A stretch of 40,616 bases of DNA, taken from positions 1 through 40,616 of IMG/VR virus record IMGVR_UViG_3300045988_105999, one strand, 5' to 3'. Shown piece by piece: positions 1 through 23,307 of this stretch. Position 1 is the first letter of the stretch, and the number at the start of each line of letters is the position of its first letter. Source of the DNA: a virus. Under the pieces are notes generated by a model, which saw only the letters and a program-made list of their open reading frames with translations, searched no databases and was not told where the DNA came from. The translations under genes were made by a program, and so were the position numbers.

Positions 1-99
1 ATATTGTCAATGGTTTTTTATTGTATTTGCGATTTTTATGTGAGGGAAATATGAACGAGATATTGCTACGTATAGAAGCTTTGCGAAAAGCAAAAAAGA
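1..99. repeat. Terminal direct repeat, copy 1 (identical to 40518-40616)
   Basis: Direct comparison: bases 1-99 equal 40518-40616 base for base, implying a circular or terminally redundant 40,517-bp unit. Confidence 0.95.
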
Positions 100-248
100 A
101 AAATGTCACACAATTATGCAAGGAAGTTGGAATTGCACAAAGCACATATGCAACATGGTTAAGGGACGACAGGATTCCACGATCTGATAAGATTCAGTTG
201 TTTGCAGAATATTTTGGCGTTGATGCGACAAGAAAACTGTTTTTGTGA
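51..248 (+). CDS. XRE/Cro-CI type HTH regulator, 65 aa, C-terminus looks cut short
   Basis: ATG 51 follows a GAGGGAAAT RBS. NVTQLCKEVGIAQSTYATWLRDDRIPRSDKIQLFAEYFGV is a typical HTH_3 pattern. The usual family ending is replaced by ATRKLFL-stop. Confidence 0.75.
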   Translation: MNEILLRIEALRKAKKKNVTQLCKEVGIAQSTYATWLRDDRIPRSDKIQLFAEYFGVDATRKLFL

Positions 249-264
249 AAGAGAGGAAGAAGTT

Positions 265-1035
265 ATGAAAAAATATCTTGTTGTGGTTGTTATGGCTTTC
301 TCGGTTATTCTTTGCCCCTCCATGGTATTGGCAGAAGAAACATATACATTTACAGAAGATGAACTTTATGATTACGTGTATGAACAGGTTCACGAAGACC
401 CCGCGGCATACATCACAAAGGAACAACACGCTCGCATACTAGCTATCTTCGCCAAGCGCACACGGAGCACCAAGCGAAAAAAAGTATATCTGTTCGCAGG
501 GCTTATCAAATGCCCTGTATGCGGAAGAACTATGGTGAGCTGTACCATGAACAAGAAAACTCTTGGCTACCGATGCAGACACCATTACACATACCATTGC
601 ACATTTATCCACACCATAACCGAAGAACGCATAGAAAGCTTTCTCCTTGAAAATATAGGCTCGATGCTTGAGCAATACCTGATTTCATACAAAGAACAGA
701 ACAAAGCGAAAAAAAAGCCTGACCCCCGGAAGTTGGAGGACAGGCTCTCTCGATTAAACAACATATACATGATGGGCAACATCTCTGACAGTGAGTACAC
801 GAAAAAGGCAAACGAAATAACGGCTCAAATTGCCGCTATAAAGTGTGCAAACAGCAACGACCTTCCAATCCCCGAAGAGTCCATAAAACTCCTGTCAGAC
901 AAGCGATTTGCCACCTTGTACGCTGACTTGCCACGGGAAAGCCGCAAGGCTCTGTGGATGAGTCTCATTGATTCAATCGAGGTTGAGGGGCTTTACCCGA
1001 AGCAAGTCTTTTTTATCGGTCAGGAAAGCCTCTAA
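265..1035 (+). pseudogene. Large serine recombinase C-terminal remnant (zinc ribbon + coiled coil) fused in frame to a signal-peptide-like leader; catalytic resolvase domain absent
   Basis: ATG 265 follows a GAAAGAGAGG RBS. Leader is MKKYLVVVVMAFSVILCPSMVLA. Then come YLFAGLIKCPVCGRTM..GYRCRHH..YHC (recombinase Zn-ribbon pattern) and LSRLNNIYMMGNISDSEY. No N-terminal Ser-catalytic domain is found anywhere in the window. Confidence 0.6.
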
Positions 1036-1070
1036 CGTACATGACAGTTCTGTTACGTAGATTAGAGGCT
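1027..1070. terminator. Long inverted repeat between convergent genes (possible bidirectional terminator or RNA-end hairpin)
   Basis: AGCCTCTAA (1027-1035) pairs with TTAGAGGCT (1062-1070), with inner CGTA/TACG pairs. Both convergent stop codons lie inside the stem. No U-run. Confidence 0.35.
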
Positions 1071-4000
1071 ATGAAGTCCGAGCTGTGGTTTTCTTACGTA
1101 TCTTTGCCGTCTTGCTCTTGAAACTGGAATCAATAGGGGAATCCCAGTCTTTCAGATTGACAGCACTCACTTTGCCACTATTGGACAGTGCGTCCTTTAC
1201 ATAGCTTTCCCATGACGGCATGTTGGTCTTCTTGGTGGAGGTAGAAGCACTTCCAGAACGTCCGGAACGACGACGACCACTTCTACCATAGCCGCCCCTA
1301 CCTCTGCCAGAGCTGACTTTGTCCAGCTTGACGAAGCCAAGGTAGTTCGGGATACGTCCGTAAGGATTCTTTGCAGAAGATCCCTTGAGGTATTCAAACA
1401 GGCAGGCTTTTTCTGCATTGGACGAAAGCCCCAGACTGTTTATGTAATTCACGAGTTCCTTTTTGTTCAGCTTGCCGTTGCCGTCTTCGTCGCACTGGTA
1501 AACAGACATAAACTTATGCTCCGTCAAAGACTTAAAGGTGTATCCGAAATTTTTCAATCCCACTCCCATGTTGGCTTTCTGTTCACTCAACCCAAGTGCA
1601 CGGTATGTACGCTCCTTGATGTTAAAACCTGCGGCGGAAACAGCTTTGTTCGCAGTGGATGTTGAAACTCCCGCCTTGTTTATGCCGGATGCGATATTAC
1701 ATGAGGCATTAGTGAATTCTTTTCTGTTGCCGCCAGAGTTGAGATACTCTTTTGCTGCCTTTACTTTATCTGTATGGATCCCATAAGCTGTAGCCATTTT
1801 ATCGTTTCCGGACAAAGCGACCGCCATTGCCTTGATATAATAATCAGAAGCGTGCGATCTAGCAATCAGTTTCTCCTTCTGAATGTAAAAGTTGACAAAC
1901 TCTTTATCCGTACCGCCAAGCATTTTGTTTGCTCTGCGTGCTTCTTTGTCGTTTTCTTCATTCTTCGCGATACGATTTGCGGCAAACTTCGCTCCGTAAG
2001 TTTTCAGGTCAGCGCAGGTCTGTCCGATCCAATGAGAGCTGTTCACTTCGGACGATTTCATTTCCCACGTCATGTTTTTGTACGATTTAGCATCAATCAT
2101 AGTCTTTATGACACTCGCCTGCTGTCTCCGGCTTTCTTTTCCGAATTTATATGCTTCATCATAGGTCATGCGTTTGCCGTTGCCGAGATCATAGCTTGGA
2201 TTCCCGGTGAAGTTGTAATAGAAATACTTTTTGTCGTCGCCATCCTCCATATGATTGTAGATAGAAATGATTTCCTTGTCCATTTTTGTGAACTTGATTT
2301 CTTTTGTGGTGGACGGGTTTACAAACGAATGCAACGCCCGAACAACAATGTTGTTCCCAGTCTCCACGTCATTTCCGAATCTATCCACTTTCGGGTTGAG
2401 CAACTCATTTCTAAGCACCGGGACACGGTTTATCATTTTTCGCCGCCACGAATCCCACGACCGAATAAGAGGGTCTTCCTTGGTAGAACGTGTATCCCTT
2501 ACCTTACTGTCAAGTGTGCCAGCTAACTGTGAGGATACCTGCGGTACAAAACCATTAAGATACCCCTGCGGTACAGACCCGAAGAGAGCCTGAAAGGCTG
2601 CGCTGCTCCAGTCAGCTTCGCCGTTGCCCTGATGATAGGCTTGGTCCATGAACGTTTCTATTGTGTCTTTCGGGCCGGACATGAACGACATATCCATCAT
2701 CGGTCCCGTCGCTGCCATCAGTCCGTCCCAGATATCCATAGGCTGAAAACCATCGCCGGTCAATGTTTCCCATGTCTGCGCCCCCATAAAGAACGAAGTC
2801 TGCATCGGTGCTAACCAGTCAATGGTCATGGAATACTCCTTGCCATTCCACAAGTGAATGTTCAGTGAGTAGTCCTGATACCCCATATCCCGGTCATAAT
2901 ATTCATCGCCAGAAACATTTCCTACCTTTACGGTAACAAGTCCGCACTCTGCCATTAATGCGCCTAGTCCAAAAATACCTGTTCCCGTAAGCCCGGTAGC
3001 AAGGTCATGAAGTCCCTGCTTGAACAGCTCTGGATCAGTCTGTTTCCATAACTTCGTAGTAGCTATGACAATCGAAGCAGGGGAAAAATCAATACTTCTC
3101 CTGAATACATTTACCGGCGTTTTTACAAACGGAATAGCATATTCTAATACAGTGTTAGCAATTCTGTATCCTGCCGTTCCGATACCAGTTTTGCCCTTTG
3201 CGCCTTCGGTCTTCTGCTTCAATCCGGTAAGCCACGAACTGAACTTTGTCGTGTCTCTAAAAGTTGCGTATTCCGCCTTAGCGAGAGCGTAATTTCTTGC
3301 CTCGTTTTTCTGCTCCGCTGTCAGATTTTTAATATCCCATCCCTTGGATTCACACTTCCGCACGTAGTTCTTTCTGAACTCTGGTTTGAAGACCAGCATA
3401 TCTTCCTTTTCCAGAAGTTTATAGTTGGCATTTACCAGCTTGCGTAATGCTTTCCATTCGACTGCAGTTACACCTTCCGGTCGTGTAGATTCAATATACC
3501 TATTGACACTTCCGGCATTGTCGTACGCTTCTTTAAATTCGCTGTCCAAGAGTTCCTTGTTCTCTTTGATTGCCCTATGGTTCACCTTTACCATGTCAAC
3601 TTTGCCACCCAGTTTTTTGATGTGGCTTTTTGCAATTTTGTTCATGATAATTTCCAACCCATCGGCCGCGCTTCTAACTGCTTTGAAGGCATAGTTTCCA
3701 ACAATATTCCTCTCATGTGTTTTCAGGTTTCCGAGCATGGACAGATGTCTGATTTCATTGAACTTCTCAAACAGTGTTGCTGGTATCTGTTCCCAGATTT
3801 CCCTGCCGATTTCATCCATCACATCCGCGACTTCATCATCGCTCGCATTAAGGATGCGCTGCACTTGGTCTTCTGTCAGCTTCAGTTTACCGTCTTTCAT
3901 CCTGCCGCCGTACCTGCTGTTCAGTCGGTCGATGTCTTTCAGAGCCATCCGTATTTTTCCTTCTGGCGTAGTTTTAACCAGCAGCTTTGCCGCGTTGAGT

Positions 4001-7000
4001 GCACGACCGCTGAAAGATGCCAGCTCGTTAGCTTTCTCCAGTACGTTCATCATCTGTTCTGCGGCAGCCTTATCCCCAGCCTCAAAACGTCTGGAAAGTT
4101 CTTCTGACAGTGCCCGGGCTCTTGCGAAAGCAACATGAGCATCTTTATCCGGCAGTCCATTCAGCATATCAGTGTCAAGGAAGTTTTTGTAGCACCGCAT
4201 GAAATCGTCCGTGATTTCTCTTTCTACGTATGCTTTGGCATCTGCCTGTGTGTATCCTTTTGCCTTGTTGAACACGCCATCCGCAGCCTTTTCATCAAAG
4301 ATGGTTTCCAGCTCCTCTTTTCCTTCAACGAAAAGTTTTCTGGCCTTAGTGGCATTACGTCCCATCTCACCATCAGAAGCTACTTTGCGAACGTCTTTCA
4401 TAATATCAGATACCGGCGGATTTTCTTTCTTTATCTGTTCCCCGGCAGTCTTTGCCATAACGACTTTGTCAGCATTGTCGTAAGCTGCCTTAGACTCTGC
4501 CATCCAGTTTTCCTGTGCTTTTGGATCTTTTTCGATTTTAGCTATGGTCTCTCTCTGCACCTTGGATACAGGCGTGTTCTCTACCATATCCATAGCCTTC
4601 TGCGGGCTTGTTCCCATCTTCTGCAGCTGATCCAGAATATCATCATCTGTGAAGCCGTTTTTCCGCATGGAGTCAATGTGACGCACGATTGCTTCATCGT
4701 TGGCTTTCACCATCTGCCTTGCTTCTTCGGATTTTGCAATCGGTTCAGCAGATTTTACATTATATGCCCCTGCGTCGATTGCTTCATTGAAGTTTTTAAC
4801 AGTGGCATCTGATACTTCTTTACCCACACGTTTGCTGATATACGCTTCGTTTGCCGGAACTTTTTCTCCGAGAATATCTGTATACCCATTACGCAGCCGT
4901 TCATCAAGAAGCAGCTCGATTCTCTTTGAAACAGCATTGTCAGCCTTAGAACCGCCTTCTATAATGTCATTTAGCCCTTTTTCAATCTGCTTATAACTAT
5001 ACTTGTACTCGTCACGCAGGAATGCTATATCGTCGGTAGTCATTCTGGAAGTACCAAAATATCCGCCGGAGTATCCGTTGTTCTCATTTACAACAGGTGA
5101 AAAAGTCTTTTCGCCTTTCACACTCTCATTAAGGTCTCTAAGCATTATCCTTGCTTCGTCCTGAATGTGTTCCTTTAATTCCGGGTTTTCATTCGCGATA
5201 GCTTTAACATTCCTTTTCGAAACATCCTTCATGGTTCTCTTAGGTGCAGGAGCACTCGCTCCGGAACGTTCCTTTACTGCATTATAGTTATCCAGAAGCT
5301 GTACCGCTTCATCAAACTGTGCCGGTGTTAAATCATCAAATGACTTCGCATTAAAGTAATTCAGAATGTCTTCCTGCGAAACGGCTCTCGTTGTAGCCGG
5401 AACGTCTTCTGCTTTCAAGTTTGCAATACGTTCCGCATTGTTTGCGTCACGCTTTGCTACGTCTGCCGCTGTGAGAGACTTCACTTCTGGCAGGGCTGTA
5501 AACGGTTTTTCCTGCTTTGCCCGAAGTTCGTCTACCGCTCTCTGTCCGGCTCTTTCAGCTACCGTGTTTCTTGCCTGTGCTACAGCTCTTTGCAGAAACT
5601 TTGACTCTGCTGGAGTCAGCTCAATTCCAGATTTCTGTTTTGCCAGAATTTTGACGGTCTTCTGCATATCCTTGGATGCCAGCTTGCTTACAGCTTTTGT
5701 TCCAATATCCAATCCGCCGCCGACCACGAGGTCCATCCCTGTATTCATTCCAAAAGTCTTTGCAGCTTCGCCCCAGTGCACCTTGCCGTTATCATCCGTC
5801 GCTGTTTTGATTGCATCGGAAGCGTTGAGCGGGGACGATATAGTCGCATCCGCCACACGACCCGCCACAAACCGTTTAAACGCCGTTGTGCCGTTCTTTT
5901 CTGCGGTTTTGGCAGCATTCTTCGATGCGGTGGAAATCATCGCTCTAGTCGCATCGTCAAGCTCTCCACGTACAAGCTTCTTTGCCGTGCCCTTACCAGT
6001 TACTTTCAGTCCGGTCTTTGCACCGTTCTTTACCAATGCCTTTGAAGTCTGCTTTGCTCCCATCTTTTTCAGCACTGCTTTTGCTACGCCAGATTCTCCG
6101 GCACCCAGTCCGCCGCCGATGAAGAATGAGCCAACCTGTCCGCCCATATACCCGGCTTTATACGCCTTGGAATTTTTCGACTTCTGGTTCTGGTACTTTT
6201 CTGCATTCGTGTATGTTCCTGAGCCCATTCTATCAAGCTCGATCGGAAGTAGATTCATACCCTCCATAGCACCATGTGCAGCTTTTCCTTTGTGCAACGC
6301 CGCAGTATTCAAACTACCTACTGTCTTGGCAAGATACTTTCCTAGTGCCGCATTCTTCGCTTTAGTACTAGGCATACGCTCAGCGTTCTGCAGGCGCAGA
6401 TACTCGTCACTGGTAAGATTGCGGTATTTCAACCTATTCGGCAGTGCCTTGTCGATTTTCTTGTCGATGCTCTTCTTTGCATACGGCATGACCTGCTTGA
6501 TAACCTGTTTTTTCTGTGCTTCCGAAAGATTGCCGTATTTATCCTTTTTGCTCAGCTCCTTATTGATTTCGCTGTATGTTGCTGCATAGGCGGCGGCTTT
6601 TGTCAATCCCCTCTGCATGCCGTTATTCGTCTTGTAGGATTTGGTCTTGACCTTTGCACCGAGAGCGTCTATCTTTTTCGCCTTTGCTACAGCTTGCTTA
6701 CCGTCAGCACGCAATTTATCACGCCAAGTAGACACCTTCTTTTTCTGCGCTGCAACCTGCGTCTTCTTATTTCGCATCTTGGTAAGCTGTAAAGATGCCT
6801 GCGCCACTTTCTGTGCCGCCTGACGCTTTCTTTTTTTTTCCTCTGCAGCTTTTGCTGCTGCATTCTGCAAAGCTCTTACTGTAGCCTGTGCAGCCTTGGC
6901 AGCATCAGCAGACGCAGAAGTTTTCTTCTTCGTGTTCTTTGGGTTTACCCGCTTCGCTGCTTTCTTGGTCTGTTTTGCAACACGCCGGACAAGAGAGCCG

Positions 7001-7035
7001 ATAGAAGCAAACGACGTTTTCTTTTTCTTAGCCAT
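1069..7035 (-). CDS. Giant 1,988-aa protein of unknown function (candidate packaged ejection/pilot or polyvalent protein)
   Basis: Uninterrupted 5,967-nt ORF. ATG 7035 follows a GAGAGGGG RBS. Lys/Ala-rich N-terminus, Gly-rich hydrophobic segments, EF-hand loop, RGG tail. Last gene of the late block. Confidence 0.85.
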   Translation of the reverse strand: MAKKKKTSFASIGSLVRRVAKQTKKAAKRVNPKNTKKKTSASADAAKAAQATVRALQNAAAKAAEEKKRKRQAAQKVAQASLQLTKMRNKKTQVAAQKKKVSTWRDKLRADGKQAVAKAKKIDALGAKVKTKSYKTNNGMQRGLTKAAAYAATYSEINKELSKKDKYGNLSEAQKKQVIKQVMPYAKKSIDKKIDKALPNRLKYRNLTSDEYLRLQNAERMPSTKAKNAALGKYLAKTVGSLNTAALHKGKAAHGAMEGMNLLPIELDRMGSGTYTNAEKYQNQKSKNSKAYKAGYMGGQVGSFFIGGGLGAGESGVAKAVLKKMGAKQTSKALVKNGAKTGLKVTGKGTAKKLVRGELDDATRAMISTASKNAAKTAEKNGTTAFKRFVAGRVADATISSPLNASDAIKTATDDNGKVHWGEAAKTFGMNTGMDLVVGGGLDIGTKAVSKLASKDMQKTVKILAKQKSGIELTPAESKFLQRAVAQARNTVAERAGQRAVDELRAKQEKPFTALPEVKSLTAADVAKRDANNAERIANLKAEDVPATTRAVSQEDILNYFNAKSFDDLTPAQFDEAVQLLDNYNAVKERSGASAPAPKRTMKDVSKRNVKAIANENPELKEHIQDEARIMLRDLNESVKGEKTFSPVVNENNGYSGGYFGTSRMTTDDIAFLRDEYKYSYKQIEKGLNDIIEGGSKADNAVSKRIELLLDERLRNGYTDILGEKVPANEAYISKRVGKEVSDATVKNFNEAIDAGAYNVKSAEPIAKSEEARQMVKANDEAIVRHIDSMRKNGFTDDDILDQLQKMGTSPQKAMDMVENTPVSKVQRETIAKIEKDPKAQENWMAESKAAYDNADKVVMAKTAGEQIKKENPPVSDIMKDVRKVASDGEMGRNATKARKLFVEGKEELETIFDEKAADGVFNKAKGYTQADAKAYVEREITDDFMRCYKNFLDTDMLNGLPDKDAHVAFARARALSEELSRRFEAGDKAAAEQMMNVLEKANELASFSGRALNAAKLLVKTTPEGKIRMALKDIDRLNSRYGGRMKDGKLKLTEDQVQRILNASDDEVADVMDEIGREIWEQIPATLFEKFNEIRHLSMLGNLKTHERNIVGNYAFKAVRSAADGLEIIMNKIAKSHIKKLGGKVDMVKVNHRAIKENKELLDSEFKEAYDNAGSVNRYIESTRPEGVTAVEWKALRKLVNANYKLLEKEDMLVFKPEFRKNYVRKCESKGWDIKNLTAEQKNEARNYALAKAEYATFRDTTKFSSWLTGLKQKTEGAKGKTGIGTAGYRIANTVLEYAIPFVKTPVNVFRRSIDFSPASIVIATTKLWKQTDPELFKQGLHDLATGLTGTGIFGLGALMAECGLVTVKVGNVSGDEYYDRDMGYQDYSLNIHLWNGKEYSMTIDWLAPMQTSFFMGAQTWETLTGDGFQPMDIWDGLMAATGPMMDMSFMSGPKDTIETFMDQAYHQGNGEADWSSAAFQALFGSVPQGYLNGFVPQVSSQLAGTLDSKVRDTRSTKEDPLIRSWDSWRRKMINRVPVLRNELLNPKVDRFGNDVETGNNIVVRALHSFVNPSTTKEIKFTKMDKEIISIYNHMEDGDDKKYFYYNFTGNPSYDLGNGKRMTYDEAYKFGKESRRQQASVIKTMIDAKSYKNMTWEMKSSEVNSSHWIGQTCADLKTYGAKFAANRIAKNEENDKEARRANKMLGGTDKEFVNFYIQKEKLIARSHASDYYIKAMAVALSGNDKMATAYGIHTDKVKAAKEYLNSGGNRKEFTNASCNIASGINKAGVSTSTANKAVSAAGFNIKERTYRALGLSEQKANMGVGLKNFGYTFKSLTEHKFMSVYQCDEDGNGKLNKKELVNYINSLGLSSNAEKACLFEYLKGSSAKNPYGRIPNYLGFVKLDKVSSGRGRGGYGRSGRRRSGRSGSASTSTKKTNMPSWESYVKDALSNSGKVSAVNLKDWDSPIDSSFKSKTAKIRKKTTARTS
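1456..1491 (-). other. Canonical EF-hand type Ca-binding loop within the giant ORF
   Basis: GAC GAA GAC GGC AAC GGC AAG CTG AAC AAA AAG GAA encodes DEDGNGKLNKKE, which fits D-x-[DNS]-x-[DNS]-G-x-[ILV]-x-x-x-E. Confidence 0.5.
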
Positions 7036-7048
7036 GATTTACCCCTCT

Positions 7049-7618
7049 CTAATAGCCTTTTGCATATGTGGTAAGGTAATTGATTCGAGCCTGAATGATT
7101 GCCCTTTCCTGGTCTGTTGTTGCAGAACTGTAAGCTCTCTGCAAAGAGCCTGTGTCATAATAAGCACCATACTTCGCCTGCAAAAGGTCAAGAGCAGCAG
7201 CTTTATTGTCCGCCTGCTGGTTCTGTGCGAGCTGTCTATCCTCGGCTTCTCTCTGTTCAATGTAATTGATTTTCGCCTGATCCGTTGTCTGCTTATAGTT
7301 GAAAAGGTTATCCGCCGCCTGTGCATCAATGTCCTGCAGTGCTCTGGACTTTTCCTTGTTCATGTCGTTTCTGTTGTTCTCGTAGTTTGTTGCAAGCTTT
7401 AAATGAGACGTCTCTGTTGCCCCGCCTCGGATACCGGATTTCTTGAGATTCTCATTCAGATTTTTCTCATTCTGCATCCGGGAAATGTACGCTTCTTTCA
7501 GCTTTGAATTATAATCTTCCGTGGTCTGCTGTTTCTTTTTCGCAGTATCCTCTTCATTCTTTTTCCTGTACTCATCGTACAGATTGTCATATCTTTTTAA
7601 CTCGGTTTCGTATGCCAT
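7049..7618 (-). CDS. Hypothetical coiled-coil protein, 189 aa
   Basis: ATG 7618 has a GGAGGATAAC RBS; the track ORF extends to 7708 without an RBS. Asn/Gln/Lys-rich. Only 13 nt upstream of the giant ORF. Confidence 0.75.
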   Translation of the reverse strand: MAYETELKRYDNLYDEYRKKNEEDTAKKKQQTTEDYNSKLKEAYISRMQNEKNLNENLKKSGIRGGATETSHLKLATNYENNRNDMNKEKSRALQDIDAQAADNLFNYKQTTDQAKINYIEQREAEDRQLAQNQQADNKAAALDLLQAKYGAYYDTGSLQRAYSSATTDQERAIIQARINYLTTYAKGY

Positions 7619-7628
7619 GTTATCCTCC

Positions 7629-7662
7629 AAAAAAAGAAAATCCCCGGAGTTTCCCCCCGGGG
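7629..7662 (-). terminator. Intrinsic terminator after the lysis block
   Basis: Minus-strand RNA reads CCCCGG-GGGGAAACU-CCGGGG followed by AUUUUCUUUUUUU. It lies between the 97-aa gene (ends 7674) and the RBS of the 189-aa gene. Confidence 0.7.
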
Positions 7663-7673
7663 CGTATTCTGTT

Positions 7674-7967
7674 TTATTGAGAAGCTCGCTTCCTCTCATA
7701 GGTTTCAATTTTATGTTTTACGTCCTGCTTATACTTGTACGCATCTGCAAGTTCTCCGTTTGGTTTCTTCCCGTAAAGGGTACAGTCAACAAGCTCCTTT
7801 GTGACGCAGAACACGGCGTTGAGTGCCTCAAGGGTAAGTTCCTCCCTTTCTTCTGTTGCCGCGTGTCTCTGCTCTACTTTCTTCTGCTGATGTGTGACTA
7901 CAAGCATTGTCAGACCGGAGAGAATCGACGGGACCGCGGCTATGATGATTGCCTGAATAGTTGTCAT
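7674..7967 (-). CDS. Membrane-anchored protein, 97 aa (lysis-associated by position)
   Basis: AGGAGGAATC RBS. N-terminal TM helix IIIAAVPSILSGLTMLVV followed by a charged helical region. Directly downstream of the endolysin. Confidence 0.7.
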   Translation of the reverse strand: MTTIQAIIIAAVPSILSGLTMLVVTHQQKKVEQRHAATEEREELTLEALNAVFCVTKELVDCTLYGKKPNGELADAYKYKQDVKHKIETYERKRASQ

Positions 7968-7979: not shown

Positions 7980-8654
7980 CTACACGTTGATATGTACGGA
8001 TGTACCCATCTGACGGGTATTGGCATAGGCATATTTTGCTCCACATTTATATGCGTAGGATACTACCTGTTTACGCCCTGCGGCGGTATCACAAATGCCT
8101 TTGATATAAATATCTGCCGCCTTGCCCTTCTTGTGGGAAGAGTTCTTATTGCCACCCACCTGTGCGTTATGCCGATTGCACCGCTGCCCGGATCTGATAT
8201 TGACCGGCCGGCCGTAATGCGCCCGGATCTTTTCCAGAATGTTCAGCAGCTTTGCGGACGTATTGCCCGCCGGGTAGCCGTTGCAATATCTGCCGCCGCA
8301 TTTACACTTAAACTCGCTCTTCTTAAAATGTGCGGATGCTCCACCGGATGGCGTTGATACCGTTGTTCTGCCAGGCGACGTACCGCCGCCAATGTATGCC
8401 GTGCTGCCGATCTGTGCGCAGATCCATCCGGACGGGATCTGCACCCACACCTGATTGCCTACGGTCTTGACCGCCTTCGCCGTCACCCGTGTGCCGTTTT
8501 TCAAAACGGCGTAGGTGCCGACCTTTGCGGCTTTTTTGCCGCCCGCCGTCAGCTCCGACCGCTTTTTCTGGCGGTAGTTTGTTCCCGGACCCGTCCGTAC
8601 TTTCAGTCCGGAACTCGCTTTGATCGTATATGTTTTCCCAGTACTAAATGCCAT
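7980..8654 (-). CDS. Endolysin: N-terminal SH3-like wall-binding domain + C-terminal peptidase M15 (D-Ala-D-Ala carboxypeptidase-type)
   Basis: RSGQRCNRHNAQVGGNKNSSHKKGKAADI matches the M15 Zn-peptidase pattern SG.R....N..VGG...S.H..G.A.D. The N-terminus has an SH3-like pattern (GLKVRTGPGTNY...VWVQI). Adjacent to the holin. Confidence 0.8.
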   Translation of the reverse strand: MAFSTGKTYTIKASSGLKVRTGPGTNYRQKKRSELTAGGKKAAKVGTYAVLKNGTRVTAKAVKTVGNQVWVQIPSGWICAQIGSTAYIGGGTSPGRTTVSTPSGGASAHFKKSEFKCKCGGRYCNGYPAGNTSAKLLNILEKIRAHYGRPVNIRSGQRCNRHNAQVGGNKNSSHKKGKAADIYIKGICDTAAGRKQVVSYAYKCGAKYAYANTRQMGTSVHINV

Positions 8655-8656: not shown

Positions 8657-8929
8657 TTACACCTCCTCTTCCAGACAGTCAGATCCATCACCGTCTTCCT
8701 GGAGAGCCTTCTTATACCCCTGCGCCTCCTTGGCGGTTCTGGTGATGTTGTTGTTCTTCCACCACACCCAAATAACTGACAGCCCTGTTGCGATCTGTAA
8801 CGCGATGTCAGAAAATGCCGATTCATCAAACGGGATAGGATTCAGCCCCTTCGCTGTCAGCACCGTGTTAAACGCCAAGATCGCCGCTACCAGCAGCCGT
8901 ATGAACGCTTTTAGTGTTTCATTTTTCAT
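8657..8929 (-). CDS. Holin, 90 aa, two TM helices and a charged C-terminus
   Basis: TM1 is AFIRLLVAAILAFNTVL and TM2 is IALQIATGLSVIWVWW. A WWKNNNITRTAKEAQ motif is typical of Gram-positive phage holins. Acidic tail. Immediately upstream of the endolysin. Confidence 0.8.
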   Translation of the reverse strand: MKNETLKAFIRLLVAAILAFNTVLTAKGLNPIPFDESAFSDIALQIATGLSVIWVWWKNNNITRTAKEAQGYKKALQEDGDGSDCLEEEV

Positions 8930-10194: not shown

Positions 10195-10617
10195 TTATTC
10201 CTCCGGTTCTATGTAATAAAGATTTCCTGTTGTTGCATCGTATTCAAAAGTACCGACTTTCCCTGACGGTCCTTGCGGTCCGGCAGGTCCTTGTATTCCC
10301 TGCACGCCTTGCTCTCCCTGTGGACCGGTTGCTCCTGTGTCACCCTTTTCTCCCTGAATGCCTTGTATCCCTTGGATGCCCTGTTCGCCTTGGATTCCTT
10401 GTTTGCCTTCGTCTCCCTTGTCACCCTTTGCGCCTTTCAGTGATGCAAGCCACGCTTCTTCGTCTCCGACAAAGCCGTTTCTCACAGCAACTTCATACGC
10501 AGATGCTCCGTCGATACCAGGCGGTCCCTGCTTACCCTGCGAAGACTCTTTCAGTTTGTCGATAGCCTTTGCCAGTTCCGGTATGGATGCGTTATAGTCT
10601 TTTCTGTTTAGCTTCAT
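10195..10617 (-). CDS. Collagen-like (G-X-Y repeat) fibre protein, 140 aa
   Basis: ATG 10617 follows a GAGGAGTG RBS (the track start 10659 overlaps the upstream gene). 19 uninterrupted G-X-Y triplets plus a shorter GKQGPPGIDG run. Confidence 0.8.
   Translation of the reverse strand: MKLNRKDYNASIPELAKAIDKLKESSQGKQGPPGIDGASAYEVAVRNGFVGDEEAWLASLKGAKGDKGDEGKQGIQGEQGIQGIQGIQGEKGDTGATGPQGEQGVQGIQGPAGPQGPSGKVGTFEYDATTGNLYYIEPEE
10261..10434 (-). repeat. Coding G-X-Y triplet repeat (19 units)
   Basis: GAKGDKGDEGKQGIQGEQGIQGIQGIQGEKGDTGATGPQGEQGVQGIQGPAGPQGPSG. Confidence 0.9.
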
Positions 10618-10621
10618 ACCA

Positions 10622-12640
10622 TCACTCCTCATAGAACAGGAAGCCTGTGTCCGACTCATAGATCAGATTCAGCGAGTTAACATCATGTCCGGAAACATAC
10701 AGATTGCTGTCTCTATCCATGAGAAGCGTGTACGTTTCAACCTCATTATTGATACGATTCTTAGAGTAGTTCCCGATAGTGTACAACTTGACCACTTCCT
10801 GAACACCAAAGCTTTCATTGAGCAGGTCATTTTTGATGATGAACTGCAGCCGCTTATACTTCTTGAATTTCTTCTTGATGTAGAAGTCCTGCGGCAGGTC
10901 CGTATTCGTACCGGCAATCGCACCGATATATACAGGCTTGTTTTCGTCCGCTCGGATATAAACCTCTGCCGAGGTGTTCGCAATGCTTCTGTCAATTGAC
11001 TGTATCGTCACCAGACAGCCTTTTTTCTGCATATTCTTAAAGTAGTGCGTCACGCCATCATTGTCCAAGATAGTTGTCCAGTGAGATTCTATCGGCATTC
11101 CATCATCATTGAACGCTTCGCTTCCGAACTCTGCGATGGACTTGAATCGGCAGAGTTTCCCGTCAGCTGTACCGAACCACAGCTCTTCGTTATGCACGCA
11201 AAATGCCGTTGCCGGTACATTCTCCCAGTAGTAACACTCATACTGCAAATTGGAACGCTGTGTTTCCCACGAGTTCTTCTGCGTGCCGTCCATGATGTAG
11301 CAATGGTCATTCACGCATAAAATATAAAAGCGATCCCATACTACCGACACGGAGTCTTTCAGGTTCGCTTCTTCTAAAAGTTTCTTATTGATATAGTAGC
11401 TTCGGTTCTGGACCGTAGCTGTTGCAAAGTAGTTTCCGCTCTCCGAAGACATCACCGCCGATATGCCGTATAATCCGTCCTCTGACAGGAAAATCTGCTC
11501 CCCATTGAGTGAGTTAAAGGACTTCTTAGAAATCGCTCCTACGCCCGTTATAGACTGTCTCACAGCATATGTGGAGTTTTCATCAAATGTCAGCGAGTAC
11601 GCCAGAAATACTGTACTGCTTTCCGGGTTCGATTCTTTGATAATACCGAGGTACTCTCCAAGGTCAATCAGTCCCATAACTGACGTAAAATCGTCTCCGA
11701 CTACAAAATAGCTTAAGTCCGGGAAATACGATGCGTCTTCATACGCAGAGTACCAAACATAGGACTTATACGTCCCCGATGCTCCAGACAGGAAAATCCG
11801 GCTGTTGTAAACCGATGCTACCGTACACTGTCGGAGCTGTTCTGCAGCAGGGCTTGTTCCCGTAGCGGTATACTCTATGATGATATTGTCTTCCCCGGTC
11901 ACTACAGGTGGCTTAGCCGCAGAAAATGTGATTTTCCCAGTCGCATAATCCACGGTGTACCCAGATCCCTTTGTCAGCGTCTCATAATCGCCGGAGCTAT
12001 TTTTTACCTTTACGGTCTCCGTACCGCTGACAATCGGCGTAGATGTGTAAAACTCCTTGGATTCTGCGTCTCCCAGAAACATTTCTTTTCGTTTCCGGGT
12101 AAGAAGATTCACATTTTCATACACTGTACCGCCGCCGGATGATGTTCTACCGATCAGTGTTGTTGGCACATACGGCTGCACTTCCTTGAAGTAAAACTGC
12201 TTTGCACCATCCACAGTCTTAAACGTGTACTCACGGAGAACATTGTCAGCCAGAATGTAGAACGCACCGCCAGATATAGCATTAAAGAAAAATCCCACAA
12301 CATCCGAAGCTGGATCACTCAATGTAATAAGTGCCGCTGTGTTATCTGCGAGCCCATTGTAGATGCCGTTTCCCTTTGCATACAGAATGTGAGATTGTCC
12401 GCCATAGTCAAACGACCACATTTCACGGATCTTCGCCTTCTGTTCTGCGTCTAAAGGATTGTATTCAACCTTCCATCCGGTACGCTTGTACGGTACTCCG
12501 CCATCATCCGGGAGCATGTTCAGTGCGTCAGGGCTCCTTCTCTTGAAAACCTTTGTTGGATCAGTGGTGAAATCTATGCCCTTAAAGTTCGAGTATACCG
12601 ATGTATAAACTTTCGGCTCGCTCGGTGTCTGTATTGGCAT
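10622..12640 (-). CDS. Large tail structural protein, 672 aa (nozzle/tail body, by position)
   Basis: 2-kb ORF between the putative adaptor and the fibre genes. GGGGGG RBS. No enzymatic motif seen. Confidence 0.5.
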   Translation of the reverse strand: MPIQTPSEPKVYTSVYSNFKGIDFTTDPTKVFKRRSPDALNMLPDDGGVPYKRTGWKVEYNPLDAEQKAKIREMWSFDYGGQSHILYAKGNGIYNGLADNTAALITLSDPASDVVGFFFNAISGGAFYILADNVLREYTFKTVDGAKQFYFKEVQPYVPTTLIGRTSSGGGTVYENVNLLTRKRKEMFLGDAESKEFYTSTPIVSGTETVKVKNSSGDYETLTKGSGYTVDYATGKITFSAAKPPVVTGEDNIIIEYTATGTSPAAEQLRQCTVASVYNSRIFLSGASGTYKSYVWYSAYEDASYFPDLSYFVVGDDFTSVMGLIDLGEYLGIIKESNPESSTVFLAYSLTFDENSTYAVRQSITGVGAISKKSFNSLNGEQIFLSEDGLYGISAVMSSESGNYFATATVQNRSYYINKKLLEEANLKDSVSVVWDRFYILCVNDHCYIMDGTQKNSWETQRSNLQYECYYWENVPATAFCVHNEELWFGTADGKLCRFKSIAEFGSEAFNDDGMPIESHWTTILDNDGVTHYFKNMQKKGCLVTIQSIDRSIANTSAEVYIRADENKPVYIGAIAGTNTDLPQDFYIKKKFKKYKRLQFIIKNDLLNESFGVQEVVKLYTIGNYSKNRINNEVETYTLLMDRDSNLYVSGHDVNSLNLIYESDTGFLFYEE

Positions 12641-13231
12641 CTAAATCCCCCCTGACATGATCCTTGCTCTCGGCTTTTCTGCACCCATCTTTATTTCCTG
12701 TACCAGTCTTTCATACTGGTTGTAGTACGACACCGCCTTGGCGTTTTCATCTTCCATCCAGATATAATAGCTGGCCAGAAGCGGCACAAGGTGATGGACT
12801 TTCAGAGGAAGTTCTATCGGTGCAGAATCTTCCGAATCCAATGTGAACGGTGTGTGCGCCCTCTTATAGAACACTTTGAACGACCCCTTCACACTGCCGT
12901 CCATAATCAGCACCTTGTCGTTTTCGATTTCAAAGTCGTTATACTGCTTATATACGGTAGGACCCACCATGACTGGCGTATCTGCAAACTCAAGGAATCT
13001 CACAGTGCCGTCTTCATCAGCAGTCAGTTCTTCCATGTCGTAGTACAGCAGGTCGCTTTCTGTACCGTCCTGTTCAAATTTATACGTTCCAACATTCGGC
13101 GTTACTATGAGGTTGATTTCCGTGATTGCTCTGTTTATCGCATTCGGCACTACTTCGTCAAATTCGTCGATTTCTGCATCTTCTGCAAAACCGAGGTCTC
13201 TGATTTGTGCTTTCAGTTCTCCATAGTTCAT
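12641..13231 (-). CDS. Putative head-tail adaptor/connector, 196 aa (position only)
   Basis: AGGAGTTACTTA RBS. Abuts the 672-aa gene (stop at 12641, next start at 12640). CDS is confident; function is inferred. Confidence 0.45.
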   Translation of the reverse strand: MNYGELKAQIRDLGFAEDAEIDEFDEVVPNAINRAITEINLIVTPNVGTYKFEQDGTESDLLYYDMEELTADEDGTVRFLEFADTPVMVGPTVYKQYNDFEIENDKVLIMDGSVKGSFKVFYKRAHTPFTLDSEDSAPIELPLKVHHLVPLLASYYIWMEDENAKAVSYYNQYERLVQEIKMGAEKPRARIMSGGI

Positions 13232-13806: not shown

Positions 13807-14649
13807 CTACGCAATCTTCATACGCAGGTTTACGATTTCCTTTGGAGCAGTGACTCTTCCGTCAAACAGGGAGAATCCCTTGACACGATCCTGGAAGTAA
13901 TCTCCCGGTCTGTCTGCTTCCAGATGCAGGTAAGCATCAATAAAGGAAATGGCGTTATTAGTCTTTACCTGAATGTCACATACTCCTGTAGAGGAGAAAT
14001 GCACGTTGTTGGAAGCTTTGATGATAGCACCGCCGTACATTCCTACTCTGCCGTTTCTCAGCATTTCAGAGTTGTTGGTATCGAGGTCAACATATGCCTT
14101 TTTCAGCAGCGTTACGACTTTGTGCGGTACAGTGATAGTAACTTCGGTATCTCTATCTACATCGTTCTCCCACAGGATTTCCAGTGCCTCATCAAAGTAA
14201 TCTAAGATGTTGGTGTATGTAACCAGCGCAGATGATTTATCGACGATCTTCACCTGCGGATCAGTAACCAGTCCGGCAATGAACTTGTCCTGCGCATTCG
14301 CAACCTTATCCTTTGCCTTTGCGGCGTACTTTCCGATAAGTCCATCTCCGCCTTCTGCCTGTCTCTTGTCGAGATCGTCAACAAAGAAGTTGAAGTCTCT
14401 GTACTCCATGATCGGGATTGTCATGGATGTACCCTGTACTTCCTGTGGAGCATCCAGCTTATGGGTTTTACCATCGTTAAAGGACCGCAGGTCAACATCT
14501 CCCAGTCCCAAAACCTTTACAGTATCGCCTGCATGTCTTGCGATACCTTCGTATTCGCGGTTTGTGTTTTCTGCGAATACCAGCTTTCTTTTGAGATCAT
14601 CTTTGAATTTCTTCGCCCAGACCTCAGGAATAAAAGTTTCTACAGACAT
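13807..14649 (-). CDS. Major capsid protein, 280 aa
   Basis: Follows the scaffold gene. N-terminus FIPEVWAKKF...NREYEGIARHAGDTVKV matches the common MCP opening pattern (iPE.W...l......v.r.yeg.i...GdtV.i). AAAGGAG RBS. Confidence 0.75.
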   Translation of the reverse strand: MSVETFIPEVWAKKFKDDLKRKLVFAENTNREYEGIARHAGDTVKVLGLGDVDLRSFNDGKTHKLDAPQEVQGTSMTIPIMEYRDFNFFVDDLDKRQAEGGDGLIGKYAAKAKDKVANAQDKFIAGLVTDPQVKIVDKSSALVTYTNILDYFDEALEILWENDVDRDTEVTITVPHKVVTLLKKAYVDLDTNNSEMLRNGRVGMYGGAIIKASNNVHFSSTGVCDIQVKTNNAISFIDAYLHLEADRPGDYFQDRVKGFSLFDGRVTAPKEIVNLRMKIA

Positions 14650-15432: not shown

Positions 15433-15604
15433 CTTTTATCGTTGATTCAGTTTCTTCTCCGGTAGGTGAGTATGCTGTGCCGCACTCTTTGCATTCCGGA
15501 TTCACGCAGGCATAGAAAAATGTCTCCACGCCGTCTTTTCTTGAAATTTTATCTAACAGCATTTCGCTGTTGCACTCACTGCACCGCCTGTTCACTGTTA
15601 CCAT
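15422..15604 (-). CDS. Zinc-ribbon protein, 60 aa
   Basis: ATG 15604 lies 6 nt after a GGGAGG RBS. Two CxxC pairs (CSEC ... CKEC). Overlaps the portal 3' end by 29 nt. Confidence 0.5.
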   Translation of the reverse strand: MVTVNRRCSECNSEMLLDKISRKDGVETFFYACVNPECKECGTAYSPTGEETESTIKERE

Positions 15605-17291
15605 CTTGCGCCTCCCATGCTTTCTGTGCCGCCTGCATATCAGCTCCATACGTCGCCTGCAATCCTGCGGCTTCCTGCTTCATTTGCTCCTGCTGCTCGA
15701 GTTTTCGTTTCCGGAAAACCTCCATCAGTTTATTTTTCGGGACAACGCTGTTATCCGGTGCAAGCTCGACGTACTCCTTGAACGTGATGTGCTGTTTTTC
15801 AAGCATACTGTCAAGTGCAGTCTGCTCCGCTTCCTTTGTCCACGGGTTATCCTGCGATACGTCGATTCGGATGTCCGGTTTCATGTTGTCCAGTTCTTCT
15901 GTAGTGACTCTCTCTACAGTCCTGTGAGATTCTCCTATATCATCCGTAGTATCAACGGCAACATCGAAGCCTTCCGGGTGATACACTGCCCAGATTTCAA
16001 CCCATAACTTGGCGAGATCCTCAACAAATGTTTTCATCTTCGCCACCTGCTCATTCAGCGGGAGTGCCGCCTGGTCACGGATAGCGATGATTGCGGATGC
16101 CGCAACTCTGTTCGGGTTGATGTTACCCATGGCAGTTTCACCAGAACCAGACAGTTCCTGCGAGTTTGAAAGCAGGTCGTCTGCATAGTTCTTCGGGTCA
16201 GAGTTACTCTGCGCCGGATTCAGGTATGAAATTATCTGGTTGATGCTCTGCACGCCCCCAGACTGCATCTCAATAGGTGCTCCCACTTCTCCGAGTGCCT
16301 CTGGGTTGGTGATAGCGTTACCGTCGTATGCGATTCTCGGGAACGCCGTAAGCTTAATAATCATGCTCCGGCGTGCTAGGGTCTTGTTGATTTCAAGCTG
16401 ATTTGGGATAAGCTGTGTTACCTCGGAGATCCCTCTTGCACTGTTCGGGTAATCTTCCCATGAAATTTTAACAAGCGGATAGAGAGTAAGTCCTCTGCCC
16501 GGTTCGCCATTTGCCAGAGTTACTTGTATTGGATGCTCCGGCTCGAAAATCACGCTTCTTGTGCACTGCGTTACATGAACAATGCCCCCTTTTTTCTCCA
16601 TATGGATAATACACGTCACCTTGGACTCGTTACTGGATGAGTCGTTTGTGACTTCGTCCCGGTTTCCAACAAGGTTTTCCGTGTCATTGTCTGCTGTGAT
16701 CCTCTTTATCTCGCTCTCCGGTATGTTGTTCAGTCTTGCTCGCTCCCTGACAGCTCCTACGGTAAGCCTCTGAACTATGATGATATACGGCTGCTGCTGT
16801 ATGTTCTGATTAGACTCGTCGCCATAAAGCACCGAGGTATTAGGCAACCGCTGCATATCTTCGACATTTCCGGTCCCGTAATACTGAATACCGTCTCCGG
16901 TGACCGCTGAATCCTTTGTGGTTGCCCAAAGCTCCATGTCCATGTTGGATTTTTCCCAGCATCTAGCAAACATAGCATTGAGTTTGCTGTAAATCGCCAT
17001 GGTTTCTTCTTCCTCCCTGCCTTCTGCGTCGGAATACTTCGCTACCATGTTGTTCTGTGATACCGTAGAGACTTTGTGCTTGATGGTAGGCTTGATGAAA
17101 TTTAAAAACGGCAGTTCTTCACCGCCGCTCTTCATGCCTTCCCATTGATTTCCGGAATAGAAATTCCATGCCTTGTTTGTTTTGGGTATAAGTTGTTTAT
17201 TTGTCAGATATTCCATGCCTTTTTCGTACCGTTTCCAGTACTTTTCCGGTGTCTGCGGAATATCAATGTTTTTCTTTACAGGGTTTGTCAC
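15576..17291 (-). CDS. Portal protein, 571 aa
   Basis: GTG start with an AGGAGG RBS, overlapping the upstream stop (GTGA). Size and position (after terL, before scaffold/MCP) are typical for a portal. Confidence 0.7.
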   Translation of the reverse strand: MTNPVKKNIDIPQTPEKYWKRYEKGMEYLTNKQLIPKTNKAWNFYSGNQWEGMKSGGEELPFLNFIKPTIKHKVSTVSQNNMVAKYSDAEGREEEETMAIYSKLNAMFARCWEKSNMDMELWATTKDSAVTGDGIQYYGTGNVEDMQRLPNTSVLYGDESNQNIQQQPYIIIVQRLTVGAVRERARLNNIPESEIKRITADNDTENLVGNRDEVTNDSSSNESKVTCIIHMEKKGGIVHVTQCTRSVIFEPEHPIQVTLANGEPGRGLTLYPLVKISWEDYPNSARGISEVTQLIPNQLEINKTLARRSMIIKLTAFPRIAYDGNAITNPEALGEVGAPIEMQSGGVQSINQIISYLNPAQSNSDPKNYADDLLSNSQELSGSGETAMGNINPNRVAASAIIAIRDQAALPLNEQVAKMKTFVEDLAKLWVEIWAVYHPEGFDVAVDTTDDIGESHRTVERVTTEELDNMKPDIRIDVSQDNPWTKEAEQTALDSMLEKQHITFKEYVELAPDNSVVPKNKLMEVFRKRKLEQQEQMKQEAAGLQATYGADMQAAQKAWEAQDGNSEQAVQ

Positions 17292-17566
17292 TTGATTTCC
17301 TCCTGTCCATTGTCTGTGCCGTCATATCGGTCTATATTGGCTAAAACAGAGTTGATTTTTCTAATTTCTGCTTCCTGTTCGGTCCTCTGCTTCTTCTCTG
17401 CCTTAGTCTCCCTGTGCTTTATCTTGGGAGCATCTACAAAAGCAGGCACTTCCTCTTTTTCCTCAACTAATGCCAGTTTCACGCCGTATGCGATGAATTT
17501 AACCACAAAAAACGGTAAAATCATCAGATACACAACGCAAATTGTCAGCAAAATATCAAATAACAT
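17288..17566 (-). CDS. Small membrane protein, 92 aa
   Basis: N-terminal hydrophobic segment ILLTICVVYLMILPFFVVKFIAYGV followed by a Lys/Glu-rich tail. Wedged between terL and portal, overlapping both. Confidence 0.55.
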   Translation of the reverse strand: MLFDILLTICVVYLMILPFFVVKFIAYGVKLALVEEKEEVPAFVDAPKIKHRETKAEKKQRTEQEAEIRKINSVLANIDRYDGTDNGQEEIK

Positions 17567-19055: not shown

Positions 19056-19059
19056 GATT

Positions 19060-19416
19060 TTACATACACCCCGCTTTTTCAAAAGCAGTGAAAATCTTTG
19101 GTAGCTGAATTGCCAGCCAGTCAACCATTTCTTCGTGTCTTGCCCATCCACAGGAAGGAACGCTTGAAGAATCGGACAAGCCGCTTTCATTCAGGAAAGC
19201 ATGTATCAACTCATGTCTCAACGTTTTCTTCCTGTATGTCTCCTGTTCGTTTTTATCCATATGCCTAAAGTATTTTTCCTCTGACATATCAGCAACTACG
19301 ATCAGTTTACCTTCTTCCGCGCAGTAGCCAGCGAGTCGTCCTTCTTCCAACGCGGAATCCTCTGATACCTTGTGCGTTTCAATCGTATATTCTGTTCCCA
19401 AGACATCCACTTTCAT
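19060..19416 (-). CDS. Small HExxH zinc metallopeptidase, ImmA/IrrE (DUF955)-like, 118 aa
   Basis: GGAGGTTATGAC RBS. GYCAEEGKLIVVADMSEE...RKKTLRHELIHAFLNESG fits the ImmA/IrrE pattern (G....k.I.in......r.TL.HEL.H). Confidence 0.55.
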   Translation of the reverse strand: MKVDVLGTEYTIETHKVSEDSALEEGRLAGYCAEEGKLIVVADMSEEKYFRHMDKNEQETYRKKTLRHELIHAFLNESGLSDSSSVPSCGWARHEEMVDWLAIQLPKIFTAFEKAGCM

Positions 19417-21186: not shown

Positions 21187-21375
21187 ATGGGAAAAAGAGA
21201 ATACACCCCAGCAAGAGCCGAAGCAAACGCAAAGTATGACGCAAAGACATACAAAAAGATAAACATTGCCTTGCGGATCAAGGAAGACGCGGACATTATC
21301 GCAAGCCTTGAGGAAGCCAAGCAAAAGGATATAAGCAATCGTGAATGGCTCCGGGAGATTTTCGAGGGTAAATAA
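21187..21375 (+). CDS. Small Arc/CopG-like (RHH) protein, 62 aa
   Basis: AGGAGGTGATTCA RBS. AKYDAKTYKKINIALRIKEDADIIASLEEAKQKDISNREWLREIF fits the beta-strand + two-helix RHH pattern. Confidence 0.5.
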   Translation: MGKREYTPARAEANAKYDAKTYKKINIALRIKEDADIIASLEEAKQKDISNREWLREIFEGK

Positions 21376-21436
21376 GCCCTCTTTTCTCTTTAGTGTACCC
21401 AATAGTACACACGGAGCAAGGAAGGGAGAAAAAACA

Positions 21437-21883: not shown

Positions 21884-21897
21884 AAAGGAGAAAAACC

Positions 21898-22626: not shown

Positions 22627-22647
22627 AGCCCCCGGAAAGGATACAAC

Positions 22648-23015: not shown

Positions 23016-23026
23016 GAGGGAATACA

Positions 23027-23233: not shown

Positions 23234-23236
23234 CAC

Positions 23237-23281: not shown

Positions 23282-23307
23282 AGCAGTATACCAAGGAGGG
23301 AAATATA

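Follow-up and report, generated by a model that had tools for sequence, protein, structure and literature searches.

The stretch of DNA analysed here, IMG/VR virus record IMGVR_UViG_3300045988_105999 (40,616 nucleotides (nt), hereafter the window), carries at the end of its late operon a giant gene encoding a protein of 1,988 amino acids (aa); the IMG entry for the identical protein is annotated "hypothetical protein". Our analysis indicates that this gene, from a podovirus of gut Clostridia (Oscillospiraceae/Clostridiales) with prophage relatives, probably encodes an internal virion protein (IVP), that is, an ejection or "pilot" protein, built on the modular plan of the polyvalent proteins. 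This reading, drawn from sequence comparison and predicted structure, is supported by the homology of the protein's core, the podovirus context, synteny, the polyvalent architecture, the interchangeability of the core and a virion precedent, and the protein itself is predicted to reside in the virion. A first-pass annotation, made from the letters of the window alone, had suggested a packaged protein, either of the ejection/pilot kind or a polyvalent effector; homology, not experiment, now backs both halves of this proposal.

The gene lies on the minus strand, opens with an ATG at 7035 preceded by a GAGGGG ribosome-binding site, and ends with a stop codon at 1069–1071. We verified this frame from start to stop, and its 5,967 of 40,616 nt (14.7%) agree with the 15% of the genome estimated earlier for a single open reading frame (ORF). 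Its guanine-cytosine (GC) content of 0.45–0.48 is the same as that of the remaining genome, and a foreign island was rejected for this reason. The first 130 residues contain 23.8% Lys and 23.1% Ala, compared with 11.7% and 11.4% protein-wide, as expected from the Lys/Ala-rich segment first noticed by eye, and the first 100 hold 31 Lys or Arg against 3 Asp or Glu. The five motifs and stretches quoted in the first-pass annotation were all found again at the positions listed below, and a rescan for HExxH, Walker A and DxDGD motifs, reported as missing, likewise found none in the protein. A search of a large protein collection returned 63 relatives of 1,450 to 3,440 aa, and BLAST against these relatives set the module borders. 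The gene and its parts are as follows, with model confidence given as the predicted local distance difference test (pLDDT).

1069–7035, minus strand: giant gene, 1,988 aa plus stop codon; predicted IVP-D-class ejection protein of polyvalent architecture.
6646–7035, minus strand: very basic Lys/Ala-rich N-terminus, aa 1–130; one long low-confidence helix predicted (H44–124, pLDDT 30–50).
5461–6645, minus strand: N-module, aa 131–525; folded island at aa 130–260 and conserved Gly-rich hydrophobic stretches at 307–316 (GGGLGAGESG) and 437–445 (VVGGGLDIG).
4711–5460, minus strand: recombination cassette, aa 526–775; unnamed alpha/beta domain at aa ~600–735.
4141–4710, minus strand: helical linker module, aa 776–965, kept in close relatives.
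1822–4140, minus strand: all-helical core, aa 966–1738; homologous, by profile comparison, to gp16-position internal virion proteins (phrog_6651 type).
2914–2994, minus strand: hydrophobic Gly-zipper-like helix, aa 1348–1374, GLTGTGIFGLGALMAECGLVTVKVGNV, with LTGTGIFGLGALMAECGLVTV at aa 1349–1369; Kyte-Doolittle 1.56, invariant G1351, flanks conserved.
1072–1821, minus strand: C-terminal module, aa 1739–1988, present with either core; confident helical domain to about aa 1900 (pLDDT 85–94), then a disordered basic tail (pLDDT below 50).
1456–1491, minus strand: EF-hand-type loop DEDGNGKLNKKE, aa 1849–1860; exact match to PROSITE PS00018.
1252–1311, minus strand: Arg/Gly/Ser-rich basic tail SGRGRGGYGRSGRRRSGRSG, aa 1909–1928, kept in relatives of both core types.

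Direct searches with the whole protein named nothing: Pfam returned a sub-threshold EF-hand and no other match, PHROGs and NCBIfam returned no match, and none was found among 50,697 phage records (megablast, tblastn) or among PDB sequences, whether by phmmer or with an alignment profile. The identification comes from the core. This region, aa ~966–1738, is conserved down to 22–28% identity in every distant relative and carries the motifs MLGNxKTHxRNxxGN, LExED, ATFRD, PFVKTPxN, GLTGTG and QDYS...TIDWxxP. Searched against 1.84 billion representative proteins, a 12-sequence core profile matched 21,738 protein clusters at E≤1e-3, of which 9,106 at E≤1e-30. The 150 best-scoring matches are proteins of 850 to 4,000 aa with the core towards their C-terminal end, and among 14 long members Pfam found MuF_C in 6, ART-PolyVal in 5, LPD3 in 4, PBECR5 in 3 and ddrB-ParB in 2, besides others. 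In thousands of related proteins the core is fused to swappable effector domains. In Pfam scans of the giant protein and these 14 members no model covered the ~700 aa of the core itself, and no Pfam, NCBIfam or PHROG model names it in the giant protein or in the family members scanned.

A tblastn search with the core consensus reached proteins annotated "internal virion protein D" in Roseobacter phage CRP-403 and Desulfovibrio phage ProddE, both Autographiviridae. In ProddE the gene comes after those of tail tubular protein B, IVP-B and IVP-C and before that of the tail fibre, which is the slot of T7 gp16; in CRP-403 too it occupies the gp16 slot, where tail tubular protein B and three unnamed ORFs come ahead of it and the fibre behind it. 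The ProddE protein in turn links to 69 records, almost all from marine T7-like cyano-, pelagi- and roseophages, including Syn5 gp45 and P-SSP7 gp16. A hidden Markov model (HMM) of the core, built from 44 sequences, gave the following hmmsearch scores.

ProddE IVP-D: 73 bits.
CRP-403 gp34: 70 bits.
Mycobacterium phage jiawei gp515: 43 bits.
Syn5 gp45: 30.5 bits.
P-SSP7 gp16: 24.5 bits.

Profile-profile alignment of the core with these same five proteins (hhalign) returned a probability of 99.7% and an E-value of 5.9e-26 over 515 columns, with MLGxxxTHxxN, DExF, PFxxTPxN, a hydrophobic Gly-rich helix and the beta-hairpin that follows it all aligned. The reference proteins belong to phrog_6651, "internal virion protein", while T7 gp16 belongs to the separate phrog_342. 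On this profile evidence, the core and the internal core proteins at the gp16 position of T7-like podoviruses are homologous. Syn5 gp43, gp44 and gp45 have been described as the capsid core, equivalent to T7 gp14, gp15 and gp16 (PMC5850374), and the T7 core proteins leave the virion before the DNA and build a trans-envelope conduit (PMC8954989). The ejection half of the earlier proposal is therefore carried by homology to a group that includes an established capsid-core protein, Syn5 gp45 (PMC5850374). The accompanying statement that nothing identifies the activity still holds for residues 1–965.

Structure prediction pointed in the same direction. The AlphaFold2 model of aa 940–1988 (pLDDT 75, predicted template modelling score 0.64) is almost entirely helical, and Foldseek against BFVD matched the core to the "internal virion protein" of Pelagibacter phage EXVC018P (E 6e-12) and to those of Synechococcus phages S-CBP2, S-RIP1 and S-CBP3 (E about 1e-8, to 2e-8), as well as to giant proteins of gut viromes; these are comparisons between predicted structures on both sides, with no solved reference. 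Against PDB, the two half-models gave best E-values of 0.044 and 0.74 with TM-scores of ~0.1, so that neither the core nor the N-terminal half, which was modelled with a pLDDT of 51 and shows folded islands at aa 130–260, 600–735 and 780–820, has a significant neighbour there. No matches were found either between the N-terminal modules and IVP-A, -B or -C of T7-like phages.

Taken along its length, the protein presents a mosaic of modules. The N-module (aa 131–525) retains 72–83% identity and is common to relatives of both core types described below. The following cassette (aa 522–775 by BLAST) differs even in relatives that are 85–89% identical over aa ~776–1986. At its position, a close relative (P0005) carries a PBECR3 RNase domain and a more distant one (P0015) carries MuF_C, and the cassette's own domain reappears at another position, aa 870–1005, of the giant protein of locus L014 (75.6 bits). 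A protein search with aa 590–840 by themselves gave one fragment of 149 aa, probably owing to the word index used, since relatives of full length exist. More distant relatives carry ART-PolyVal, LPD1/3/23, PBECR5, RadC, nucleotidyltransferase or Peptidase_M23 domains. The polyvalent half of the earlier proposal is borne out by these relatives with the same core, in which PBECR3, MuF_C, ART-PolyVal, LPD1/3/23, PBECR5, ddrB-ParB, RadC and M23 domains occur.

Such associations would also fit a protein that is purely injected effector cargo, acting in host takeover or anti-defence, with the core serving only as a handle for encapsidation and export and forming no conduit. The co-occurrence of the core with nucleases, ADP-ribosyltransferases and ddrB-ParB domains points this way, as does the reading of polyvalent proteins as early-conflict effectors by Iyer et al. 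2017 (PMC5512222) and the presence of a single hydrophobic segment. We nevertheless consider pure cargo unlikely, since the homologues of the core are gp16-position core proteins of T7-like phages, since the giant protein keeps the full core while having no recognisable effector domain, and since family scans of this phage found no other large candidate for an ejection protein.

A further argument for an ejection protein comes from five relatives (P0012 and P0024–27) that keep the N- and C-terminal modules and replace aa 834–1735 with a block containing the Pfam domain LPD38. BLAST finds no match between these proteins and the mid-region of the giant protein (aa ~834–1735), while aa 1736–1986 align with them at 41–51% identity. 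A test for the block being a diverged copy of the window's core gave no signal: hmmsearch between the two returned nothing and hhalign a probability of 0.5%. The P0012 block matches Thalassomonas BA3_0002 (L018, 111 bits) and gp20 of the Bacillus megaterium podophage Page (L019, 88 bits), a 1,679-aa protein whose gene lies just ahead of the lysis cassette; tblastn with P0012 also reached 118 Vibrio phage records, a few of them annotated as methyltransferases. Hardies et al. 2016 (PMC4819975) include BA3_0002 among the IVP-D homologues, and virion proteomics of phi24B found the 2,811-aa LPD38-type polyvalent protein gp47, proposed to be the ejection protein (bioRxiv 10.64898/2026.04.10.717836). 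Evidently, whole ejection cores are exchanged inside a fixed N- and C-terminal frame, and because one and the same frame houses either of two ejection-class cores in closely related gut phages, we argue that this whole frame is the ejection protein.

IVP-D homologues have been reported to carry domains bound for the cytoplasm, with the N4 vRNAP embedded in one of them and a methylase in H66 gp60 (PMC4819975). The N4 example raises the idea that the giant podovirus protein of the window is itself a virion-packaged enzyme of the vRNAP type, for early transcription or other catalysis. We give this idea almost no weight: polymerase motifs (DxDGD) and Pfam matches are missing, N4 gp50 is matched by neither core profile, and Foldseek against PDB found no polymerase for either half. 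A glycosidase was rejected for want of motifs or family matches.

The genome context was then read from the recomputed gene order. The late operon runs on the minus strand in the order of the following list, with more fibre-like ORFs between the collagen-like fibre and the holin and with the giant gene last.

20176–20835, minus strand: TerS.
17556–19190, minus strand: TerL.
15576–17291, minus strand: portal.
13807–14649, minus strand: major capsid protein (MCP).
12641–13231, minus strand: SU10-type adaptor.
10622–12640, minus strand: 672-aa virion protein.
10195–10659, minus strand: collagen-like tail-fibre ORF, 154 aa, many tail-fibre PHROG matches.
8657–8929, minus strand: holin.
7980–8654, minus strand: M15 endolysin.
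7674–7967, minus strand: 97-aa ORF with an N-terminal hydrophobic helix.
7662–7642, minus strand: intrinsic terminator, a hairpin (8-bp stem, 7 GC pairs) followed by a T-run, ahead of a two-gene unit whose expression it would attenuate.
7049–7618, minus strand: 189-aa coiled-coil-like partner gene, start ATG 7618, directly upstream of the giant gene.

Besides the late genes, the window encodes a DnaB helicase, a Sak annealing protein, a replication protein and two methyltransferases, and it therefore looks like a whole phage genome. Family scans of its structural module matched no tube, sheath, chaperone or tape-measure gene, in line with what had been noticed by eye, which makes the phage a podovirus; an SU10-type adaptor, the 672-aa virion protein and fibres are present, as in a short-tailed phage, without a tube or a tape measure. 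These scans also bear on a tape-measure or tail-length protein of an unrecognised long-tailed phage, which the giant protein resembles in size, helical content and Gly-rich hydrophobic stretches. The first-pass annotation had held that clear homology to a tape measure, together with tube or chaperone genes, would speak against ejection, and scanning found no such combination. Tube, sheath, chaperone-frameshift and baseplate genes are missing, the adaptor is of the podovirus SU10 type, PHROGs and Pfam give no match, and the only "minor tail protein" matches of Foldseek are non-significant (E≥0.07). A tape measure is thus highly improbable and, having neither the motifs nor family matches, was rejected.

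The position of the giant gene as last late gene, after holin and endolysin, was seen again in the recomputed order. As for its placement behind an intrinsic terminator, a strong terminator does exist at 7662–7642, but it precedes the 189-aa gene rather than the giant gene directly, so the two genes form one unit behind it. The terminator is kept in L001 and missing in L004. A homologue of the 189-aa gene lies immediately upstream of the giant gene in L001–L006 and in L015; in the last, the homology falls within a 352-aa protein (E 4e-10), upstream of a giant gene only 24% identical. Scans found no family match for the 189-aa protein, and comparison with IVP-A, -B and -C of T7-like phages gave none either; it is a conserved partner, possibly co-ejected or acting as a chaperone. 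In the ORF list this gene stands as a 219-aa ORF starting at TTG (7049–7708) and running through the terminator; the real start is the ATG at 7618.

Synteny extends to the related phages. A genome search with an alignment of the closer core relatives recovered three genomes, and related giant genes sit in assemblies labelled Oscillospiraceae and Clostridiales, some of them at prophage ends beside host genes; prophages of strain DFI.6.37 and "Clostridiales bacterium strain 16" are among the relatives. The giant gene closes the late operon in L001–L004, L014 and L015, and in L015 an integrase follows it. In a distant relative (L016) it is part of the structural module, with the SU10-type adaptor gene directly downstream. 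A place after the lysis genes is a typical moron position, and one could consider a non-virion lysogenic-conversion gene encoding a cell-surface protein, toxin or exclusion protein at a prophage end: the gene is the last before a recombinase remnant and host DNA, behind the terminator and after the lysis cassette. However, the protein has no signal peptide or cell-wall anchor, its gene has the strand and GC content of the late operon, it is kept in every related phage and once within the structural module (L016), it is homologous to internal virion proteins, and the terminator is missing in L004. A moron of this kind is accordingly quite improbable.

Several observations weigh against an ejection protein and have to be set beside the homology. 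The moron-like position is one, for the gene lies outside an operon of the gp14-15-16 type; instead of standing between nozzle and fibre genes, as in the IVP-B/C/D operon, it comes after holin, endolysin and two small ORFs, behind a terminator and beside the recombinase remnant. T7 gp15 and gp16 gave no hmmsearch or phmmer signal with the core, and Foldseek of the core against PDB no match to them. No catalogued polyvalent (effector or LPD) domain was found in the giant protein by Pfam even at E-values up to 1, the N-terminal half is modelled poorly, and the helix at aa 1348–1374 is the only clearly hydrophobic segment. Finally, what we propose for the terminator, for the EF-hand and for the basic ends is inference only.

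With these points in mind, a mechanism can be proposed for the giant protein as an ejection protein. A few copies would be built into the procapsid, with the basic N-terminus and the RGG tail lying against the packaged DNA; aa 1–130 would bind this DNA non-specifically. On adsorption, the protein would leave through the portal-nozzle channel, largely unfolded and ahead of the DNA, and would refold at the envelope. There, the Gly-zipper helix (aa 1348–1374), a putative membrane-insertion element, and the surrounding core would insert into the cytoplasmic membrane; this helix is kept across the family and hhalign places it on the equivalent helix of the internal virion proteins. The inserted core would extend the short tail into a DNA conduit, while the N-terminal modules would reach the cytoplasm as cargo. 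The terminator before the 189-aa/giant pair would keep expression low, which would suit a low-copy virion component. Comparably, the T-phi terminator of T7 reduces the expression of genes 11–19.

The Ca2+ level falls from the cell exterior to the cytoplasm, and the EF-hand loop may link refolding to this fall. The loop, which the first-pass annotation had called canonical, matches PS00018 exactly, though with EF-hand_6 it scores 14.2 bits where the Pfam cut-off is 25, and a PROSITE pattern scan of the protein found this single loop without a paired second one. Its residues D1849, K1858 and E1860 are invariant among 11 relatives. A loop of this type, varied in sequence, is found close to the C-terminal end of 16 of 63 and of 9 of 141 family members, where 1–1.5% would be expected by chance. 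Judged by pattern and conservation, it is probably a real Ca2+ site, though single and sub-threshold in Pfam. The RGG-type tail, first placed at about 1249–1314 and located here at 1252–1311, is kept as an RGG/RS tail together with the last ~60 residues even in the LPD38-type relatives.

Among known systems, the closest are the phrog_6651 internal virion proteins (Syn5 gp45, P-SSP7 gp16, ProddE IVP-D and CRP-403 gp34). All are podoviral, their predicted folds are similar, a helical region of ~600 aa is homologous, and the MLGxxxTHxxN, DExF and PFxxTPxN motifs, the hydrophobic Gly-rich helix and a YSIxIG...P hairpin are shared with the window protein. The differences are substantial. These proteins measure 1,200–1,400 aa, whereas the window protein, at 1,988 aa, is longer by ~965 residues at the N-terminus and has a C-terminal module of 250 aa holding the EF-hand and RGG tail. 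Their genes lie between nozzle and fibre, after IVP-B and IVP-C, and not after the lysis cassette. Their phages are lytic and infect Gram-negative or cyanobacterial hosts (with one mycobacteriophage), in contrast to a phage of Clostridia with prophage relatives, and a direct PHROG scan misses the window protein. With T7 gp16 (IVP-D, with an N-terminal lytic transglycosylase) the likeness is one of inferred role: a large, helical protein, ejected before the DNA, membrane-inserting and DNA-binding. A positively charged C-terminal end is found in both (for T7, PMC8954989). However, no sequence or fold similarity to T7 gp16 was detected, Pfam finds no SLT domain (lytic transglycosylase) in the giant protein, and it has no muralytic domain, one relative carrying Peptidase_M23.

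The giant protein also resembles the polyvalent proteins of Iyer et al. 2017, which are giant, multi-module proteins encoded beside the virion genes of portal-terminase phages, with shuffled modules (PMC5512222). Phage-encoded polyvalent proteins were predicted there to be packaged in the capsid and injected (PMC5512222); a term search of that text found no mention of gp16, internal virion or ejection proteins. The window protein differs in having none of the catalogued domains, and since these occur in homologues that share its core and not in the protein itself, we file it as a polyvalent chassis and not as a certified member. Other giant podovirus proteins are phi24B gp47 (2,811 aa; LPD5/LPD1/LPD38/MuF-C), BA3_0002 and Page gp20. 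An LPD38-type block also stands between the shared N- and C-terminal modules in P0012 and P0024–27, and the window's core is an alternative to it without detectable homology.

Since the IVP-D class, the polyvalent class and the idea of cytoplasmic cargo were all known already, the giant protein adds a member to known classes and does not overturn current understanding. Less familiar are the gut-Clostridia hosts, the gene position after lysis, the want of a recognisable effector domain, the interchange of two cores without detectable homology and the conserved EF-hand, along with a core found in ~22,000 clusters for which the scans hold no curated family model. Labelling it as an IVP-D-like ejection core would put a name on a gene that ranks among the largest "hypothetical" ones of gut podoviruses and would join polyvalent conflict proteins with podovirus ejectosomes. 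The cassette at aa 526–775 marks an insertion place of injected effectors, useful for finding anti-defence or host-takeover domains and for engineering protein delivery. The finding also hints at a way across the envelope for short-tailed phages that infect Gram-positive-type gut anaerobes. For monoderm hosts, a recent review found no ejection proteins, at least in phi29-like phages (PMC8954989). A broader and rather doubtful generalisation would have polyvalent proteins be ejectosome proteins in general, with effector cassettes on an IVP-D-class core, two interchangeable cores without detectable homology in the present lineage and the single EF-hand as a Ca2+ refolding switch. If true, this would describe a single-polypeptide DNA-delivery device for monoderm hosts.

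Other features of the window deserve a brief mention. The 97-aa protein between endolysin and terminator (7674–7967, minus strand) has an N-terminal helix with a Kyte-Doolittle value of 2.4 followed by a charged helical tail, is kept in L001–L003, and may be a lysis accessory or membrane protein. The ORF at 202–1035 (plus strand) looks like the remnant of a large serine recombinase, with only Zn_ribbon_recom and a C-terminal coiled region (phrog_95 integrase, profile positions 335–557). The resolvase catalytic domain is missing and the N-terminus, MKKYLVVVVMAFSVILCPSMVLAEE, resembles a signal peptide. This integrase may be degenerate or mis-assembled; the relative L015 has an intact tyrosine integrase at the same position. 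Beside the remnant, at the extreme left end, a small ORF (51–248, plus strand; MNEILLRIEALRKAKKKNVTQLCKEVGIAQSTYATWLRDD...) resembles, by eye, an XRE-type helix-turn-helix regulator.

Further along the genome, 25760–28138 (minus strand) forms a low-GC island (0.37–0.38 against ~0.46 for the genome) with an N6/N4 DNA methylase (25760–26554), a class-I methyltransferase-like protein (26940–27431) and an unnamed 238-aa protein, and is probably an acquired anti-restriction or epigenetic module. A plus-strand gene block at 21341–23990, within the otherwise minus-strand genome, shows inverted GC and AT skew. One of its proteins, of 242 aa, weakly matches phrog_10415, and the block may be a switch region for lysogeny or regulation. 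Lastly, the collagen-like fibre ORF (10195–10659) overlaps the end of the 672-aa gene (10622–12640) by 38 nt, which may reflect a wrongly called start codon of the fibre gene or translational coupling of the pair.

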